Origin: Tricharina praecox | Taxonomy: Eukaryota | DNA: 64,000 bases | Direction of reading: 5' to 3' | Assembly: GCF_024521635.1 (NCBI RefSeq) | Contig: NW_026250440.1 | Span: 62,001-126,000 of the forward strand | The notes under the pieces: model-generated | What the model saw: the letters and a program-made list of their open reading frames with translations, nothing else | Databases searched by the model: none | What the model was told of the DNA's origin: nothing | In this document: positions 49,533 through 62,902 of the stretch, piece by piece | Position numbering within the stretch: position 1 is the stretch's first letter | Layout: each line of letters begins with the position of its first letter | Position numbers and translations under genes: made by a program

Positions 49533-51857
49533 CTACTCATCATCATCATCACTACTATCCCCCATATCAATCCCAGGAACAGAAAACATCTCTGCATCTT
49601 CATCATCTTTCTCCTCCTCCTCGGTGAAACTCATTTTTATCGGCGAACCCTCGGCCGCTGTGGCGGTGGTCACCTGCAGGAGCGTGGGGTACTCGCTCCT
49701 TACCGCCGTTGCGGGCGGCGCGGGCTGCGAGCTCGGTAGTGCCGCAGGCTTGTCGGGTGAGATACCTACAGCCGCCACGGAATGGGGCGGGAGCGAGATC
49801 GGGTTGGTGAAGAATGACTGCTGCTGTTGTAATGGTGGTGCGGCGGCGGCAGCGGTGGTGGTGGGGTAAAGAGTAGCAGCAGCAGCAGCAGCAGTGGGCG
49901 GCGAAACCCGCGGCCGTTTATGCACCCTACTTTCCTCCTGCTCCTCCCGCTCCCTCTCCTCCTCCTCCTCCCTCCCATCCAGCTCCTCCATCTCCAGCTC
50001 CCTCGCCTCCTTCTCCTCCTCCAACGCCCTCCTGACCTCCTCCCTACTCGGCCCCGTCCATACCACGGGCATTCTCGGCCTCACCAGTGCCTCTGCAGCG
50101 GCATCAACCCCCGCGCCAACCAGGAACGGCACTGTACCCGGCCTCTCCGCCGCCGCGCGCGGGAACAGTACTGCAGCGAGCAGCGCCGCCCGATTGCCCG
50201 TCAGGATCGCGGTGCGCTCGAGTTGCACGCGCAGCTCGGCGCGGATGTGTTGCGATGGCAGCTTGGACAGCGCGGTGGTCAGGAGGACGCCCGCGGCGGT
50301 GGGGAGGCCGGGGGGCGTGAACTTTGGTGCGGCGGGGGTCGTCGAGAGGAGAGAGTCCGCGTGCGTCGTGGAGTTGGTTTTTTGCTTCTTGTGTGCGGGA
50401 GCGGTGGTGGGTGCGGTGCGAGCGGCGGCGCGGGGCGCGAGCAGGTCCGTGCAGCAGGTTTGCAGAAGTGGGGTCAGGTACAGTGTCGACTCCTTGTCCA
50501 GGGCGGGCCCCGCGAGCGTGAGCAGCGTGCTGGTCACGTTGTAGATGGACACTTTGAGGTCGGCGTTGTAGCCCTCCTTGCCGCACAGGGCGACGGCGTG
50601 GCCGAGCAGCGAGGGGACGAACGGGATCACCACGGACTGCAGCCGGTTGACGACGGTATCGACCATGTCGAACGTCTGCGCGTGGATTGCGGGGAAAAGC
50701 GAGAACAGCAGCTCGCGCTGGGACTTCTCGATCGCCGGGTTGTGTTCGGTCGATGCCGGGTCCGTGGATACGCTCAGGATCCGGGAGACGGCGTTCATCA
50801 GGCTTCCCAGGGGAATCTGCGGCTGCTGCCCGGTCGACACCGTGAAGAAGCTGCCCACTGATCGCAGCAGCAGCCCAACCCTATCCGCCAGAACCGGAAT
50901 CTCCCTCTCCGCCTCCTCGCCTCCGCTCTGGCGGTCGCCTTCACGGTACTCCTCGAGCACGGGTTCAAACAGCACATCCAGAGCCGAATGCAACCGTGCC
51001 ACAGCAGCATTAAACAGCGCCGTCCACTCCATCGCGGGGGCATTAACCTTCCTTCCGCCCTCCTGATGCCCACCACTGCCGGGCGCAGGGCCACACAGAT
51101 GCAGTGCGACCACCAGCTCCCTGACCACCCTCTCCATTTCCTGCTCCACACACCTTCCATCCAGGAGCGCTTTCACCGCGACTTTAGTCTTGCCCACGAA
51201 CGGCCTAAACGTGACCGGGTGCGCCTGGACCGAATCCCTGAGCGCCTCCCACGCACACGCGGTAACACTGTCGTCGCCCCGCGGCGTGGTAACCGCGACC
51301 ACCAGCGCCCCAAAGAAAGCGGGAAGATGCGGCGTCACCAGCTCCCGCGTCAGCGTCGGCCGGTCGAGCGTAAGCTTCGTGAACACCCGCGCAAGGGTAC
51401 GGATGAGCATAACGGTGGTGACAGTTGGCTCCGGCCTCTATCCTCCCTCACACATATTAACGCCCACCCCACCCCCCCCCCCCCCCCCCCCATCCCCGAG
51501 AAGTGTACTTACATTAACCAACCCAACCAACCTCCTAACCCAGCCCTCCCCCCAAGCAGCAAGTGCCTCAAACGAGCTCTCAAGGACACATTTCGCCAGC
51601 ACGACACCGGCCCACCGCGCCTGCGGGGACTTACTCCCGATGAGCGCGGCAACGCGGGACTTGGTCTTTGCGCACAGCACCTGCGCCTCCTCGCTCGGCG
51701 AGGTGAGCGCGCAGTCGAATATGCTCGGCGAGGTGGTCGTGTATAGGATCCGTGCGAGCGATGGGATCTCGGCTGCGAGGGAGGCGTCCGGTGTGGATAG
51801 CAGCGCCGACACGAAGGTGCGCAGCAGTGGGAGGTGCTGGTCCGCGGGGCGCGGCAT
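49533..51857 (-). CDS. RIX1: Pre-60S ribosome biogenesis factor Rix1 (PELP1 homologue); exons 51857-51513, 51437-49533
   Basis: KSRVAALIGSK..RWAGVVL, WVRRLVGLV, PTLTRELVTPHLPAF, HPVTFRPF, LERTAILT, EALVRPRMPV and acidic tail. Confidence 0.88.
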
Positions 51858-52311: not shown

Positions 52312-54017
52312 CTAGTCGTCCATGACATTTACATGGTTTCTCTCGTCCTCTGCGACTCCCTCTTCCTTCCACGTTGGCTGGCATTCGTCAGTATCGTACA
52401 GGCTTTCTCGAGATGAGGGGTGTGGTTTAAAGTCATACCAAAGTATCAAGCGCGGCCTTAAAAATCTGAATCGACTGATCGATCTGCTCCTCGGTAATGA
52501 CCAGCGGCGGGGCGAGGCGGATGATATTCTGATGGGTCGGCTTCGCGAGCAGACCCTTCTCCTTCAGGATGAGGCAGAGATTCCACGCCGAGTGGCCATG
52601 GGTCTTTGACTCGTCGATCACGACCGCATTCAGCAGACCCTTTCCACGAATGGTCTTGATGGCGGGGCTATTCAGAGCCTCGAGACCCTTGCGGAACCGT
52701 TCTCCAAGGACTTCGGCACGCTCCGTGAGCTTCTCGTCGCGGACGACTTCGAGCGCAGCGAGGGCAACGGCACAGCCGAGGGGGTTGCCGCCGTAGGTCG
52801 AGCCGTGCGTTCCCGGCTCGATCACGAGCATCACCGCCTTGTCGGCGAGGACGGCAGAGACTGGGTAGACACCGCCGGAAATCGCCTTGCCCAAGAGGAC
52901 AATGTCGGGCTTGATGCCGAAGTGCTCGAAGCAAAGGAGACGACCAGTCCGTGCGATACCTACGATCGACGGTCAGCAATGAGTTGGATGGGTGACATCG
53001 ATTGTGGGCTTGCCGGTTTGAATCTCATCGCAGATCAGGAGGACCTTGTATTCAGTGCACAGCTCCCTCACCCTCTTCAGATAATCATCATCGGGCACGA
53101 TGATTCCGGCCTCACCCTGGATCGGCTCGACCAAAAACGCCGCGATCTTATCTCCATGCGATTTCAGCGCCTCCTCGAGGTCCTCGGCGTGGTTGAACCG
53201 AATTGGCTTTCCGGTGGCAGGGCTGATGGGTCCAACATTTGGCAGATAGGGGCCGTAATTGGCGCGACACTCCGGGTCGGTCGAAAGCGATACGGCGCTG
53301 AACGTGCGGCCGTGGAAGTTCTCTGCCACTCCGAGGATGAGCGCTTCGTCCTCCGGAATCCCCTTAACTTTGTAGCCCCACTTGCGCGCGAGTTTGATGC
53401 CCGTCTCGACCGCCTCGGCGCCGGTGTTCATGGGGAGAACCATATCGAAGCCGAAGAACTTGGAAAGAAATCAACAAAAAACTACGTCTCGATCTGGAGA
53501 GACTGGGAACATACCTCTGTAACAAACTTCGAAAATACAGGGAAGACGTCATTGTAGAACGCCCTTGACGAGAGCGTAAGCCTTTGCGCCTGCTCGACGA
53601 GTGCTCCGACAATCTTGGGGTGGCAATGACCCTGGTTGACGGCCGAGTATGCGCTCAGGAAGTCGAGGTATTGCTTTCCCTACATGAGCATCCACCACAT
53701 GCGTTAGCCGATGCAGTCCAAATAAACAAGGTGCCACCCAGCCCAACAAACAGACAATGCAGGTCCCTAAGCACAACAAAAGCACGGCCCACGCACGTTG
53801 TGGCAAGCAGAGAATCACCAACCTCAGGGTCCCAGACGTGCACGCCCTTGCCTTTGGCGAAGACCACGGGCAGCGGATGGTAGTTGTGCGCTGCGTGCTC
53901 GTGCTCCAGATCCAGAGCTTGCTTCGACGAAGTAGTATGGTAACTGTCGACGGTGGCGGTGCCAGTTTTCGCAACGGGGGTGTTCGCCTTCGCTGCCATT
54001 GAAGCTGAAGGTGCCAT
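52312..54017 (-). CDS. CAR2: Ornithine aminotransferase; exons 54017-53823, 53679-53515, 53458-53014, 52959-52439, 52377-52312
   Basis: [83 protein letters not shown]. Confidence 0.97.
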
Positions 54018-56380: not shown

Positions 56381-58589
56381 ATGGTTTCCCTCGCCCCACT
56401 CAAAATCCCCTTCCCGAACACCATGCCTCCAGCTGCCGGCACAAAACATGAGCGCGAAGACAAGGCCTCGCCTATCATCGCCTCAATTTCGAAGAAACGT
56501 GTGCGGTTCGCGAACACCGCTGTTGCACAGCAAGACTTCGAACGGCTACGGCAGGAGAGCGAGGACGAGAAGATCAGTGACAGCGATGCTAGCACCACGA
56601 CGTCTACTACGACCACCACGACTACGACTACTACTGCTACCAACGCGAAAAAGCCTCGGATAAAGGGCGCGTCGGCATCGAACATGTTCAAGAAGTTTGT
56701 TGCCAACGCACTGGATGAACGCGCTGCTGTATGTTCCCCCACGCCCTTGCTTCTTGCCGGAAGAAGATGGGACTCGGGGCTGACATCGCATCGTGGTCTC
56801 TAGGGAAAACCAGCACGCTACGAAGAAATCCGGCACAAGTTCCAGGCGGACCCTGCGGATGTGGACGGAGACACAAAGCCGCCGTCCTCGCAGGAGCTGC
56901 AGATGACGCTGAAGGCGCTGTCCAACGTGGTTTCGAGACTCGACAACAGCTGTGCTACTCTCGTTAAGGACATCGTTGCGACCAGCTGGGTGGGTAGGGA
57001 TGGCCTCTTTGTGTCAGCGTTTGTGCGCTTGTTGGGGAATCTAGTCAGTGCCCACGCGAATTACATGGGTCTTGTGACAAAGATGTTGGTCCGCAACCTG
57101 AGCTTCCTACCGACCTCGACCGGAAACCTCCCCGGCTACGTCTTTGTCGACCGGAACACCATCTATGACCGCGTCCACTACGCCCTCCAATATATTATCG
57201 CTCTTGTCCCGACCGCTGCTAGTTCTACCCTGTTTCCGCTCTTAGTCGCGGAATTCCCCCACAAGAGTGAGAGGAAACTGGAGCACACGTGCTACTTGGC
57301 GAATATGCTGAGAGTCGTGGAATACGTTCCGGCTTTGAGGCATAAAGTCCTCTCGGTTATCACGGACCGCGTCATTAAGATAGACATTGAGATCCAGGTG
57401 GACCTCGAAGAGCTGGAGGATGATGAAGGAGAGGAGCTGGAAGCCGAGCTCAAGGGTGCGCTGAAGGAGAAGGAGAAGAAGGATGTTGGTGCTAATGATG
57501 ATGAAGAAGAGGAGGAGGAGGAAGTAGAGGATGATGGAAATAAAACCGACGAGGATAGTGACGAAGAAGAGGATAAAGACACGGTCAAGGCCATCAGGGA
57601 GACTGTGGATAAACTTGATTGCATGCTCGATCTACTGTTCAAGTACTACTCGCAATTCCTCCCAGACGGCACCGAGAAGGATCCCAACAGCTGTTCATCT
57701 ACGGCAGTTAATACCTTCGAGATGATTCACAACACCTTCAACACCACAATCCTGCCGACCTACCGCTCGCGCTACACGCAGTTCCTACTCTTCTGGGCTG
57801 CGCAGAAAGCACCACGTTTCTCGGACCATTTCTGTGTTTCGATGGTGGAGAAAGCGCTCGACAACATCAGCCCGGTCGGCACACGGCAAGCCGCGACGGC
57901 GTACATCGCCTCGTACGTAGCGCGCGCCAAGCTCATGCCGGCGAAGGACGTCCGTGCCGTCGTCCGGATCCTGTGTCGATGGCTCAGCGAATTTGTCGAC
58001 GTGCGGTCGGTCGACTGCAACGGCCCCGATGTCCGGAAGTTCCGTCCGTTCTACTGCGTCGTCCAGGCGATCATGTACATCTTCTGCTTCCGGTGGCGAG
58101 AGCTCCGTGAGGAGGTCGAGGACGAGTGGGGCGTCGTCGAGACTTCGTGGACTGCCGGACTGGACGTCATGCAGAAGGTCATCACCAGCCGGTTCAATCC
58201 TCTCAAGGTATGCTTCCCCTTGCGGATCCCTTTTCGCATGTGACGCCTCGTGCTAATAGGGGGAATAGGTGTGCTCGCCCGCCGTCGTCGACATGTTCGC
58301 TAAGATCGCCAACCACCTGCAGTTCGTCTTCTGCTACACCATCATCGAGCAGAACAAGCGGAAGGGGCGAGGACGCGAGGACGACATGCTCGACTCGTAC
58401 TTCCCGTTCGATCCGTTCCTGCTCAAGAAGAGCAAGCGCTGGATCGACGAGTGCTACGTCGAGTGGAAGCCCGTGCCTGGCCTCGAAGACGAGGAGGAGG
58501 AGGACAGCGATAGCAACGCCGACGAGGACGAGGATGAGACGGAAGCTGACGAGCTCGATTCCGGGGATGAGGGGAGTGAGACCAGTTAG
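56381..58589 (+). CDS. RRN3: RNA polymerase I transcription initiation factor Rrn3 (TIF-IA); exons 56381-56728, 56804-58207, 58269-58589
   Basis: LVSAH, EFPHKSE, IKIDIEIQ, KLDCML, ILPTYRSRYTQFLLF, YIASYVARAK, QAIMYIFCFRW, FNPLKVCSP, LDSYFPFDP. The start codon choice is uncertain because the frame is open further upstream. Confidence 0.94.
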
Positions 58590-61369
58590 GCGGCGGTGGT
58601 GGTCGACGATGGATGGACGCACGGACGGATGGATGGCGGAAGGCATTTACAGTTGCGGCATTTTCTTTTTTTTTTCCTTTCCTTTTCACTGTTTCCCGGG
58701 GTTCTATAAAAGTCTGGAATGTGGTTTTTTGCTTTGCTCTGGTTTTCTTTACTTTGCTTTGCGTACCGTTGCGCTGCGTTTGCGGGGGGTAAAGGCGTTT
58801 GTATCTTTATCGTGTTCCACTTGCTAGCTTTCCTTTCCTTTCCCTTCCTTTATTGTCTTCTCTTCTTCGTTCGGTTCGGTATAGCTTTGTGGGGGGTTTC
58901 TTTCGTTTTGTTTCGGAGTTGGGTTTTCGAATTTGATGATGTATCGTGCGTAGGTATGTGCCTACATAATGTACTTATTGTTAAGTAATGTACTTACTTG
59001 CCGTGCTGCTACAGAGGTATAAGCTCCTGTGGATAATTGTGATTACTTGTCCGGTGTCAGTCTACTCTACTCTGGTGGGTATCCGTTGTGGGTTCTTCGG
59101 AGTGGATTGCTGGAAATGGAACGCGATGGTGTATAGAAAATTCATTCATAGACTATGACTCGGAATATAAAGCGTTTGTTAGGTACTCAAGTTGCCAATG
59201 GTTGAGCAGTTTATTGTTCTGGAGGGGATGCAAATACCCAAGCGACAATTGTAGCCTGTAGGGCCCTGATACGATATATGAGAGGAAAACGAGGCGCAAA
59301 CAAGAATTACATACTTCCTACCTACGCAGGCCGTCACATCCGTCTACCTATACGAGCAACGACACCCTCAAATCCGCCTAGGTAGCACTGCTCTGCTCGC
59401 AAGATGCTTCAAGTCTTGAAAATGTGCTGCCCTGCCCTGCTTCAAATGAATGGACGCCGTACAACGGGTGGATACTATACCGGTAGGCATAGGACACATA
59501 GTATGGCCGAGATTGCTTCCCTTCCCACGAACGAGGGGATGGTGTGGATTGAGAGGGCAGTTCCCGGGTGCCCGGATGCGCGACATTACCTACCTACTCT
59601 GTCTCTGGGCAGTTGGCCATGTGCTAGGTATGAGGAGGGGGGGCGGGGGAACGGGGGAACGGATACCGGTATTCCCGACTTGGTCCTGTCAGCTGCCAGC
59701 CTGCTAGCGGCGCTGGTGCGATCAGATGACAGATGATCCGCTGGAGTGGTAGAGTGGTAGAGTGGCCGTCTTCTACTGTACTATAATGGTGGCTCTTATC
59801 TGGATTCTGACATAGCTGTGGATATAGCTCACCCGGATCTGCTTTTGCGATTGCGGCGGCGTGTGATCTTTCATATTCAACGGTGGTGTCGGCGCTGTGG
59901 GAAATCGTGTGCAAGTTCGAAATGGCTGCTTCGCGGCGGATTGTTGATATAGCCTACTTACAGCCCCCAGTACTACCTGGAACTCAAGTCGTATCCTTCC
60001 ATTCCGACAGAGTGCTGGTTCACAAGCGATCACCCGATCACCCAGTCCAGCAGCGGTTATCGAACAAGCCCCATCTGCGGGGGTTCACTCCGGTGGATTT
60101 GCGATCCGTCACTCAGGCGTCGAAGCCGAAGGTCGATGGGCGATCGGCGGGGGGTAGGGCAGATAAAAAGTGAACCTCGGCGAACACCATGTACGCCTAC
60201 GGGCTTGGGTGCTCTTTCCGAAACAACGGATCCGATGGCCCGTGCACGTACATAACTGTAAATTAATATCGAAGTTACCGGACGGACGGATGGGATGGGA
60301 TGGGATGGGTGCTAATGATCTGCCAATCGCTCGGAATGACGGTGCACGTGGAAGACTTGGTATACACCGGTTCGTAGACGGCGGGGTAGATATTGCTTGT
60401 TGTTGGCACGAATGCATCCGGGCCGCGACGTTTTACCTTCCGGTGCCGTATTGGAAGTTCATAGCCGGAAGACGGGACGGGGAAATCGGAGCGAACATGC
60501 TAGAGTTGCGCTTGTAACTAGTGGCTTTACTGGCCGGCGTTGAGACTCGAAGCTCGAAGCTCCAGCTGTGATATGTAGTCGGGCTTCCATACTGTCCGTA
60601 CAATATACTTAGGATCATCGAAATACGTTTCCCGACATCTGCAATGGTCACACCGACGTGCATACTCTATGCATGCATGCACCCCACACGCCCGTGCACC
60701 ATCCAGAAAGCTTGTCTATGTACCACATATATCAACTAGCTGGTAATCAATCTGCACCCAGTCCCGAGTCCCGAGTCCCGACTCCCGGCCCTGCGGATTA
60801 CGATTCACTAGGGGCTGATTTCTCAGCCTCCTCGGCCTGCAGGGTTGCGCCAGAGTACTTACTTAGATATAGTATATGCCGAGGAAGCTGGGAGCCTTGG
60901 TGCGTCCTCATCTATCTGGCGCGAGGGTTGATGGTGTCGTGTTTTATGAACCTCCCTCCGGACTGGCTGCTGATAGTCACGAGAAAATCGATTCGCCATG
61001 GTTTGGATATCCGGTGGCCCGCAGTTCGGCAGCGCAACAGGTAAACGATGCGGCTTGCATGTTTGCACCATATGCAGACACGTGCATCTCGGCTTCAGAG
61101 TTACAGGGCTTTGCTGATGATGCTGGGAATGAAGAAGGCGATCGTATTTCGGCCATGGTACGAGTCTTTAACCTCCAGTCCCGACGATGACGATGTCTGA
61201 GTTTGACATGCGTTGTATACACCTACCTAGCACGAACATAACATAACGGCCCACGATATGGGCCTACAAAAGGAGCATTGACGTCCTCTCTACTCTGCTC
61301 ATCCAGCAGTACATACACACACGTTCATTTCTCGTCAATTGGCCGGCTCCTCGACGCTACATCCTCACG

Positions 61370-61774
61370 ATGCGCGTGATTTCACTCCTTTTCCTATCTC
61401 TGTCCTTAGCCACCACCGGCCTGGCCGCATGCGGTGGTGCCAGTACCGGTACTGCGGTGTCGACTGCGCCGATGTCGATGTCAATGTCTACCGGTGACGG
61501 CCACGACCATGAACATACACCGGTTGCTACCTTGGCTTCGTCGATGCCTACGGGCGATGGCCACGAGCACGAACATACGCCTGTTGCCTCCTCTGCTGCT
61601 GCGCCTACAAGCTCCGCGGCTGACCACGACCACGGTGCTATGCCCTCGGCCGGCGTATTCCCGCCCGGCTTCGTCACCGAGCCCAGGATTGGGACTACGG
61701 CGAAGACTGCGGGCGGGAAGGTTACCAAGCAGCGGCTTGGACCGTGGACATTGGCGGTATGTATGAATGACGAG

Positions 61775-61840
<66 letters not shown>

Positions 61841-62902
61841 CGTACGGTTGGTTGACAGTTGTGCTGTCTAGGCTGGTGCTGAGCTCCCAAACCGCTACGT
61901 TTCGGTTCCGCAGCCGTGCTCGAACTGCTACCTTGTGGCTATGGAAGCTGGGCTCGAGTACGAAGACGGGACTGAGGCGAATATTGGTACGTGCTATGCA
62001 GCCTGGTGCACCAAATACACCACTGACAGCGCTCCCAGACACCGGCGCCTGGCTGCACCACATGGTGATGTACTCGCGGTCGACAGGAAAGGCGGACGTC
62101 GTCTGTGGCGGCAGCTTGGGCCTGATGCCACGACGAATCTTTGCCTCTGGCAACGAGCGCACCGTCAAGCGTCTGAACAGCAAGTCGAAGAACGGCGTCT
62201 TCATCGGCGCGGCAGATCGCATGTCCCTGATCGTCGAACTCATGAACGAGGCTGCCGAGTCGAAGACGCTGTACCTCACCATGACCTACGAATACGTGAC
62301 CGATCTGGGATACAAGGATTCGCCGTTGATCTGGTGAGCAGTGCAGCGCCGCCCACCCCTCCTCCCCATCGGTAGCTACACACTAACCGTCCCTCCAGGC
62401 TCGACGCAACCGGCTGCGGCACTAGTGACGTAGCGGCAAAAGAAGGGTATTACGAGCTGCGCTCTCCCGCGTGGAAGTCTACCGTTTCCGGCACGCTGCT
62501 GCTAGCAGACGGACACGTTCACGACGGCGGCGTGCGCGTAACCTTCTACAAGAACGGGCAGCAGATCTGCAATTCTGAGCAGCTGTACGGGATGACGTCT
62601 GCGTACCAGGAGGCTGAGGGCAGCGGACACGCCGGCCATGGCGCCGCCGCCGGAGGCGCAACGATGCAGCATATCTCGAACTCGGGGCTGTGCGCGGATT
62701 TTGGAACGGTTGCCGTGGGTGATGAGCTTGTTGCTGTTTCTGCGTATAATACTACCAGGTATCCCCTGCAGATTCATAATGGAGAGGCGCATCCGGTTAT
62801 GGTAGGTTCTTGAATTCCTGGGTAGAGGTGGGCGGAAGTAGGTGGATGTACAGAAAACTGACGGGTACCCGATAGGGTATTGGCAATATCTATGTCGGTT
62901 GA
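61370..62902 (+). CDS. Secreted protein with His/Met-rich N-terminal arm and PHM-like (SURNod19-like) copper-ligand motifs; exons 61370-61756, 61872-61986, 62039-62333, 62399-62801, 62876-62902
   Basis: Signal peptide MRVISLLFLSLSLATTGLA. Four canonical introns keep the frame. Motifs PCSNCYL, WLHHMV, IFASGNERT, ELMN, WLDATGC, GHVHDGG, ICNS, HIS..C, HPVMGI. Confidence 0.88.
61777..61839. repeat. (GT)n microsatellite, ~31 units, inside intron 1 of the secreted protein gene
   Basis: Read directly from the sequence; the intron spans 61757-61871. Confidence 0.97.

Follow-up and report, generated by a model that had tools for sequence, protein, structure and literature searches.

A putatively secreted SURNod19-like protein of Tricharina praecox with the predicted fold and the oxygen-site ligands of PHM and DBH, a probable copper redox enzyme

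The textbook examples of non-coupled two-copper monooxygenases are peptidylglycine alpha-hydroxylating monooxygenase (PHM) and dopamine beta-hydroxylase (DBH). Animal enzymes of this fold amidate peptide hormones and make noradrenaline, and the two copper sites of PHM, the electron-transfer site (CuH) and the O2-activating site (CuM), lie about 11 Å apart. Here, we describe a five-exon gene of the fungus Tricharina praecox that codes for a protein with a comparable set of candidate metal ligands. It occupies positions 61370 to 62902 (+ strand) of a 64,000-nt stretch (RefSeq assembly GCF_024521635.1, contig NW_026250440.1, positions 62,001 to 126,000), called the window below. The CuH ligands are given as H107, H108, and H172 for PHM (PMC6123673) and as H262, H263, and H333 for DBH, whose CuM ligands are H412, H414, and M487 (PMC4846438). 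The original prediction for this gene was built on a scheme in which CuH is bound by two adjacent His and a further His, and CuM by an HxH motif and a Met. One paper reports PAM to be missing across fungi and land plants (PMC6529398).

The closest family by sequence is SURNod19, or MtN19-like (PF07712), which is known from plants. Bean Nod19 is described as a validated target of miR398b that goes down in copper deficiency and up in copper excess, alongside the Cu/Zn superoxide dismutase (Cu/Zn-SOD) (PMC3882225). For Venturia inaequalis, secreted proteins with a Nod19 domain are described as a family of effector candidates with an early peak during infection and a function that the source states to be unknown (PMC9632046). 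In the literature searched, no paper tying Nod19 or MtN19 to PHM or DBH was among the matches listed. As the UniProt entry of one bacterial relative is automatically named [quoted passage not shown] the resemblance to PHM has not gone wholly unseen in databases. We propose that the T. praecox gene probably codes for a redox enzyme that is secreted and depends on copper, an oxygenase or an oxidase being the likeliest type, and that this enzyme has a PHM-type CuM site and an N-terminal-domain site rebuilt as two His residues plus a Glu and/or a Met. The original prediction had already suggested an extracellular two-domain copper enzyme, possibly a fungal oxygenase, and this is supported by the fold predicted for its best full-length relative (P0005) and by the conservation of the ligands. 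Copper binding, site geometry, oxygen chemistry, electron donor, and substrate are the parts of the proposal that we infer from them.

Conservation was counted in a MAFFT alignment of the spliced window protein and 177 homologs of 270 to 520 aa, with gapped rows excluded at each position. The motifs first read from the DNA were found where they had been placed, with the HH pair in WLHHMVMY (His174 and His175, 62056 to 62061), HVH in DGHVHDGG (62514 to 62522), and the C-terminal Met in HPVM, which continues as GIG across an exon junction. The three putative CuM ligands are close to invariant: His305 (62514 to 62516) is kept in 174 of 175 sequences, His307 (62520 to 62522) in 173 of 175, and Met400 (62799 to 62801) in 165 of 170. 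Both His174 and His175 are present in 176/176. Almost as well kept are the Gly-Asn-Glu-Arg motif (GNER) at residues 205 to 208 (169 to 172 of 177; 62149 to 62160) and six Cys residues (145, 148, 190, 272, 323, and 364), of which Cys145 and Cys148 are found in 164/164 each. The "several Cys" of the first reading are thus six positions kept in nearly all 177 homologs, and the HH, HxH, and Met motifs, whose conservation the alignment bears out, are evidently no chance occurrence.

To compare profiles, we used five actinobacterial proteins that carry a cytochrome c and weak matches (below or near the cut-off) to both the N and the C models of Cu2_monooxygen. Their source was a PF03712 search of 401 actinobacterial genomes, which gave a match in seven, four of them above the cut-off, and they show the classic pattern HH ... 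Q-x-H-Y-H ... G-H-x-H ... D-E-M-C. With whole profiles, hhalign paired G-H-T-H-D-G-G of the family with G-H-Q-H-E-L-G of the PHM-like proteins (probability of 69.5%, E value of 4.2e-5). When only the C-terminal domains were compared, the probability rose to 89.8% and the E value reached 1.8e-6, with HxH falling on HxH and Met328 of P0005 (equivalent to window Met400) on the Met of DEMC. The claim of an intact CuM site agrees well with this alignment and with the conservation of the three residues.

The N-terminal domain is where the family departs from PHM and DBH. The third CuH His (PHM H172, DBH H333) is replaced by Glu or Asp together with Met. Within LIVELMN of the window protein, the position of Glu234 (62236 to 62238) is acidic in 173 of 177 sequences (E in 109, D in 64), Met236 (62242 to 62244) is kept in 159 of 177, and the adjoining Asn237 is kept in 161 of 177. 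In a separate multiple alignment of 24 N-terminal domains, the HH pairs coincided, and E-L-M was matched to H-Y-H of the PHM-like proteins. We accept the equivalence of the HH pairs because the motifs come in the same order, because the folds superpose as a whole, and because of this multiple alignment; the profile score of the N-terminal domain carries no weight in it. PHM His172, which we take to be the first His of Q-x-H-Y-H, would on that assumption have its place taken by Glu234. The same strand reads M-x-M-N-H in cupredoxin-fused bacterial proteins, whereas bacterial proteins of a more distant group have Y-M-L-H-N-L there and H-L-H-H elsewhere. As His, Met, Glu, or Asp persist at two alternating positions across the superfamily, an altered metal site in the N-terminal domain would seem to survive, and this is the best comparative argument for it. 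The original suggestion of a changed CuH site, with Glu or Met in place of the third His, therefore holds as to the residues found, although the N-domain alignment behind it is weak.

Other features also separate the family from PHM and DBH. It has invariant motifs of its own (P-C-x-x-C, GNER, H-x-H-D-G-G, and VMGI), and the window protein contains neither a DOMON nor a PAL domain. PHM binds peptidylglycine through an Arg two residues before HxH and through an Asn and a Tyr after the Met; at the positions that would match these carboxylate-binding residues if the hhalign register is right, the family has hydrophobic or small residues (columns G/A/I, I, and I/L/V). Since it matches neither model and lacks the third CuH His, the protein stands outside PHM/DBH in the Pfam sense, while it shares with them the fold and the O2-site ligands.

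The fold was predicted on P0005, a 338-aa metagenome protein with 54% identity over window residues 100 to 408, which stood in for the spliced window protein; the prediction used a 97-sequence alignment. The model is all beta with two domains (pLDDT of 91.1, pTM of 0.87). In a Foldseek search of the PDB, DBH 4zel came first (E value of 9e-8), followed by many PHM entries (4e-7 and weaker) and by PNGase F (5e-5). Superposition by VIA-align gave 17.4 for PHM 6ala_A (3.1 Å/226), 16.5 for DBH 4zel_A (3.7 Å/255), 15.8 for PHM 5wja_D (4.1 Å/232), 12.4 to 14.2 for other PHM entries (5.1 to 6.2 Å), and 8.0 to 9.4 for PNGase F and its kin. The body of the protein is thus predicted to adopt the two-beta-sandwich fold of PHM and DBH, and the structural search that was suggested together with the original prediction does rank these two enzymes at the top.

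The window protein was scanned against Pfam exon by exon, as four exon products, and SURNod19 was the sole family matched. Exon 4 hit the C-terminal third of the model with an E value of 3.9e-4 and 19.8 bits, below the gathering cut-off of 25 bits, and P0005 also remained below it (17.1 bits). Relatives score higher, with up to 48.9 bits: the family was matched at an E value of ≤0.01 in 53 of 97 aligned relatives (best, 6e-14), and many bacterial relatives exceed the 25-bit cut-off. A profile made from 14 PF07712-positive proteins recovers P0005 with an E value of 1.9e-85, and, because P0005 is 54% identical to the window protein, the gene can be placed in the SURNod19 (Nod19) superfamily, as a fungal member that has diverged. 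The original prediction listed HH, HxHxGG, and VMG as ligand motifs of SURNod19. In a comparison of fungal and bacterial members, those that score above the cut-off have HH, GNER, HxH, Met, and the Cys residues in common with the window protein, and the cupredoxin-fused bacterial members have HH, HxH-G-G, and VMGI.

Searched with phmmer against 1.84 billion representatives, P0005 found 1,046 sequences at an E value of ≤1e-3, 582 at ≤1e-10, and 105 at ≤1e-30. Most named members are hypothetical proteins of Ascomycota, from Pezizomycetes, Onygenales, Dothideomycetes (including Venturia), Leotiomycetes, and Sordariomycetes, with Tricharina, Aulographum, Venturia, Mollisia, and Coniochaeta among the genera. 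The nearest Atlas clusters are also from Ascomycota, and 20 to 32% of their members carry PF07712. Actinobacterial members come from Actinokineospora, Amycolatopsis, Haloechinothrix, Streptomyces, and Nocardioides, and a relative is present in 48 of 401 sampled Actinomycetota genomes, a count that includes four unpublished ones (G020, G050, G084, and G176). No plant sequence was among the matches listed in the searches with P0005 and with the PF07712-positive profile. In this family, the window gene itself is one ordinary member.

A 585-aa protein of Choiromyces venosus annotated as FAD-binding domain-containing (P0035) joins a FAD_binding_4 domain (residues 56 to 199) to the N-terminal half of a SURNod19-like body (395 to 584), either as a true fusion or because the annotation merged two adjacent genes. 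The distant bacterial group (host open reading frames [ORFs] of loci L029, L034, L035, L039, L040, L042, and L043; 540 to 820 aa) has H-L-H-H, GEEK, Y-M-L-H-N-L, and H-x-H-P-G-G, in most cases with an extra C-terminal H-G-H. None of its members has a Pfam match; a gene with a YceI domain follows the one in L035, and a CcmE gene stands near the one in L040.

Several relatives are fused to redox modules. Pfam scans gave a C-terminal cupredoxin (PF00127) in three of them: P0293 scored 24.1 bits, P0297, a cluster of 11 sequences that JGI labels "plastocyanin," scored 20.4 bits, and the ORF of the relative in L036 scored 28.2 bits. The type 1 copper pattern H...C-x-x-H-x-x-x-x-M is intact in P0293 and P0297. 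These bacterial proteins have the same exported body as the fungal one, with HH, HxH-G-G, and VMGI, but they differ in their built-in type 1 copper domain, as the fungal protein has no fused donor, and in having GEER instead of GNER and, as noted, M-x-M-N-H instead of E-L-M-N. P0128, one continuous ORF of 1,018 aa, combines a full body (HH, GNER, ELMN, HLHDGG, and IMGI) with a Met-rich linker and the domains Ferric_reduct, FAD_binding_8, and NAD_binding_6. In P0274 and P0133, the added domains are Ig-like, PKD, and Glucodextran_B, and in P0291 they are a dockerin plus TSP3. A cytochrome c is fused to the PHM-like comparison proteins themselves. An extracellular redox metalloenzyme would be expected to be joined to carriers of single electrons and to a transmembrane reductase driven by NAD(P)H, so the fusions of the relatives point to a redox function. 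Among the bacterial loci, L009 to L013 (for example, L010, 1489 to 3201, − strand) code for actinobacterial proteins of 570 to 630 aa with a cytochrome c, weak Cu2_monooxygen matches that cover both domains, and the full HH/HYH/HxH/DEMC set of ligands, L009 having a YceI domain as well; in appearance, these are bacterial PHM-like enzymes that contain their own heme donor.

The N terminus suggests where the protein would act. Residues 1 to 20 (61370 to 61429) are hydrophobic and resemble a typical signal sequence in Kyte-Doolittle hydropathy (best 10-residue mean of 2.43), as the original prediction of a signal peptide would have it, and a segment of this kind occurs in 77 of 152 Met-starting homologs, whereas a control position inside the proteins gave 2 of 152. 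From this hydrophobic start, we infer that the protein is secreted. Residues 35 to 91 (61472 to 61642) form a low-complexity arm rich in Met and His, which the window protein adds to the body of SURNod19. It consists of MSMSMS, two copies of M-[SP]-T-G-D-G-H-[DE]-H-E-H-T-P-V-A, and DHDHGAM, with His at 45, 47, 49, 65, 67, 69, 86, and 88 and Met at 35, 37, 39, 59, and 91. GHDHEH or GDDHEH strings are also found in P0008 and in the actinobacterial P0213.

Taking these elements together, the mature protein would have some 390 residues after removal of the signal peptide and would be secreted and disulfide bonded. His305, His307, and Met400 of the C-terminal domain would form the O2-activating CuM triad. 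In the N-terminal domain, His174 and His175 are kept, and the third His of the electron-transferring CuH is replaced by Glu234 and/or Met236 on the equivalent strand. The electrons probably come from an outside reductant, with the fused cupredoxin or ferric-reductase module as the donor in the relatives, and the Met/His-rich arm probably captures copper or passes it on.

A number of results weigh against this proposal. The model is that of a 54%-identical homolog and not of the window protein. No relevant sequence match in the PDB was found for exon 4, for P0005, or for the 97-sequence profile, the best hits being unrelated chains (E values of 0.42 to 2.1). PNGase F, too, has a double beta-sandwich fold. 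Cu2_monooxygen (PF01082) and Cu2_monoox_C (PF03712) had no match at an E value of ≤10 in the four exon products or P0005, none at ≤0.01 in the 97 relatives, and none at ≤1 in 10 more. Of the three profiles named in the original prediction, the two copper ones are thus without a Pfam match, while SURNod19 is matched below threshold and the PHM-like C-terminal domain is reached by hhalign. The N-domain-only hhalign comparison, which pairs HH with HH and E-L-M with H-Y-H, is not significant (E value of 0.009, versus 0.007 for a cross-domain control). On the strand aligned with the third CuH His, a His is found in just 1 of the 177 homologs, and a site of two His and a carboxylate would be suitable for iron or zinc as well. 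At least four His ahead of the conserved core are present in only 7 of the 178 aligned proteins, the window protein included; the arm is an accessory and no feature of the family. For the ferric-reductase fusion, P0128 is the one example, on one contig of 57 kb.

The gene neighborhoods of the bacterial relatives count on the same side. Neither a copper chaperone nor a common redox partner adjoins the relatives in 26 bacterial loci, and no neighbor of any other kind recurs there (118 ORFs, cut from 163 of ≥215 aa by removing ORFs, mostly antisense ones, over the host gene and those flanking it in the weakest two loci; three further loci, from unpublished genomes, were excluded). With the bacterial protein P0213 as the query, four Actinokineospora loci were found, and in two of them a PepSY_TM (PF03929) membrane protein gene follows the SURNod19-like gene on the same strand (L001, 7185 to 8708; L004, 7160 to 8698). 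As a general electron donor, a PepSY_TM membrane reductase was rejected, with PF03929 in just 1 of 24 genomes that carry a relative.

Three other explanations have to be considered. The two top structural matches, 6ala_A and 4zel_A, are both "closed" conformers; 6ALA is described with a single copper bound by H107, H242, and H244 plus citrate (PMC6123673), and 4ZEL chain A is described as closed in the same manner (PMC4846438). The T. praecox protein might likewise work in a closed conformation with one copper, or a tightly coupled pair, at the domain interface, bound jointly by HH, HxH, and Met, unlike the two distant sites of PHM, and the loss of the third CuH His would then be expected. We consider this unlikely, as the orientation of the domains is the least certain part of a predicted model, and as the strand of PHM His172 still carries E/D (173/177) and M (159/177), which a separate site in the N-terminal domain explains more easily. 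In addition, the closed one-copper state is held to be an assembly intermediate and not the active form (PMC6123673). A lectin or a glycan- or peptide-acting hydrolase similar to PNGase F, in which the His and Met residues would be structural or serve another metal, is very improbable. PNGase F is a hydrolase without a metal or copper, and the structural match to it is much weaker, with 5 to 9% identity; fusions to one-electron carriers and a reductase are also hard to reconcile with a hydrolase.

Alternatively, the protein could handle copper at the cell surface without catalysis, using its His/Met sites and its arm for capture, buffering, and hand-over, a role that LPMO-like Bim1/X325 proteins are said to play. 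The arm, with its MSMSMS and the two GDGH[DE]HEH copies, does resemble that of Ctr1, and P0128 pairs a Met-rich linker with a module of the ferric/cupric-reductase type, which in fungi serves metal uptake; the coregulation of bean Nod19 with Cu/Zn-SOD by miR398b also belongs to copper economy (PMC3882225). We nevertheless give little credit to a purely copper-handling role. Fungal and bacterial members alike keep the complete CuM triad in a PHM fold, with further invariant residues nearby (GNER, D-G-G after HxH, Tyr329, and Tyr382). Enzymes that consume electrons one at a time are the typical partners in cupredoxin fusions, and His-rich arms occur in only those 7 of 178 proteins. A redox enzyme with a PHM-type CuM site remains the reading that we prefer.

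A much broader proposal can be put forward only tentatively, and we would rather doubt it than rely on it. The whole Nod19 superfamily of fungi, plants, and bacteria might be an unrecognized third branch of the PHM/DBH copper-oxygenase fold, with an N-terminal site of two His plus Glu/Met or a merged interdomain center in a closed conformation, fed by protein donors (cupredoxin, ferric-reductase modules) and not by ascorbate; in fungi, its members would be secreted oxidative enzymes acting on an extracellular host or cell wall substrate. What the comparison offers at this point is a large fungal and bacterial family, named after plant proteins, that is predicted to have the PHM/DBH fold and an O2-binding copper triad, with the second site built differently. 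Should the chemistry be confirmed, a biochemical function could be assigned to the "stress" proteins of plants and the effector candidates of fungi that bear the Nod19 name, and a new type of site would be added to the copper-monooxygenase family. The cupredoxin and ferric-reductase fusions would then reveal by what route electrons reach such extracellular enzymes.

The coding sequence has 1,227 nt, for 408 aa and one terminal stop, and runs from the ATG at 61370 through five exons, all on the + strand. Exon 1 (61370 to 61756; 129 codons) codes for the signal sequence, the Met/His-rich arm, and the start of the N-terminal domain. Exon 2 (61872 to 61986) has P-C-x-x-C (Cys145, 61917 to 61919; Cys148, 61926 to 61928) and the conserved LEY-x-DG-x-AN strand. 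Exon 3 (62039 to 62333) codes for the bulk of the N-terminal beta-sandwich, including the HH pair, Cys190, GNER, and E-L-M-N. The C-terminal beta-sandwich comes from exon 4 (62399 to 62801), with WLD-x-x-GCG, G-H-V-H-D-G-G, Cys323, Cys364, an N-x-T site at Asn383, and HPVM, whose Met400 is the final codon of the exon. Exon 5 (62876 to 62902) adds the last eight codons (GIGNIYVG), which finish the last beta-strand after Met400 (consensus VMGI-x-x-x-YV), and the TGA at 62900 to 62902.

Introns 1 to 4 (61757 to 61871, 61987 to 62038, 62334 to 62398, and 62802 to 62875, all + strand) are 115, 52, 65, and 74 nt long. All four have GT..AG borders, and their branch sites are of the CTRAC type, read as CTGAC in introns 2 and 4 and as CTAAC in intron 3. 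They are precisely absent from contigs of two public runs, X1 and X2, which belong to two studies and are identical to the window. X2 ends exon 1 at 61756 and skips introns 1, 2, and 4, and X1 skips introns 3 and 4. The type of these runs is listed as "RNA?" by a guess only, so the spliced joints themselves serve as the evidence, and because the contigs omit exactly the four introns, the gene is transcribed and spliced. P0005 is colinear over all four exon junctions, which gives independent support to the gene model. The original prediction of a spliced product that is fragmented in six-frame ORF calling was correct, the frame being broken four times. Both the spliced contig and the consensus of the family, AN-x-x-TG-x-WLHH, rule out an alternative acceptor of intron 2 at 62029.

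No related neighbor gene was found within about 10 kb upstream of the gene in the window. The long ORFs in and beyond that region, at 49533 to 51437 (−), at 52433 to 53470 (−, in two pieces, aminotransferase-like), and at 56804 to 58243 (+), do not look related, judged from their translations only. Intron 1 contains a perfect (GT)31.5 microsatellite (61777 to 61839), which is removed by splicing in the X2 contig and whose opposite strand appears in six-frame listings as long His/Thr-rich pseudo-ORFs. In an X2 contig, the 205 letters upstream of 61219 are absent from 61200 to 61218, and the last 30 of them match 61034 to 61040 joined to 61135 to 61157. These joints imply 5′ untranslated region introns at about 61041 to 61134 (GT..AG) and 61158 to 61218 (with an odd 3′ end), although they may be an assembly artifact. 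A short upstream ORF possibly starts at 61155.

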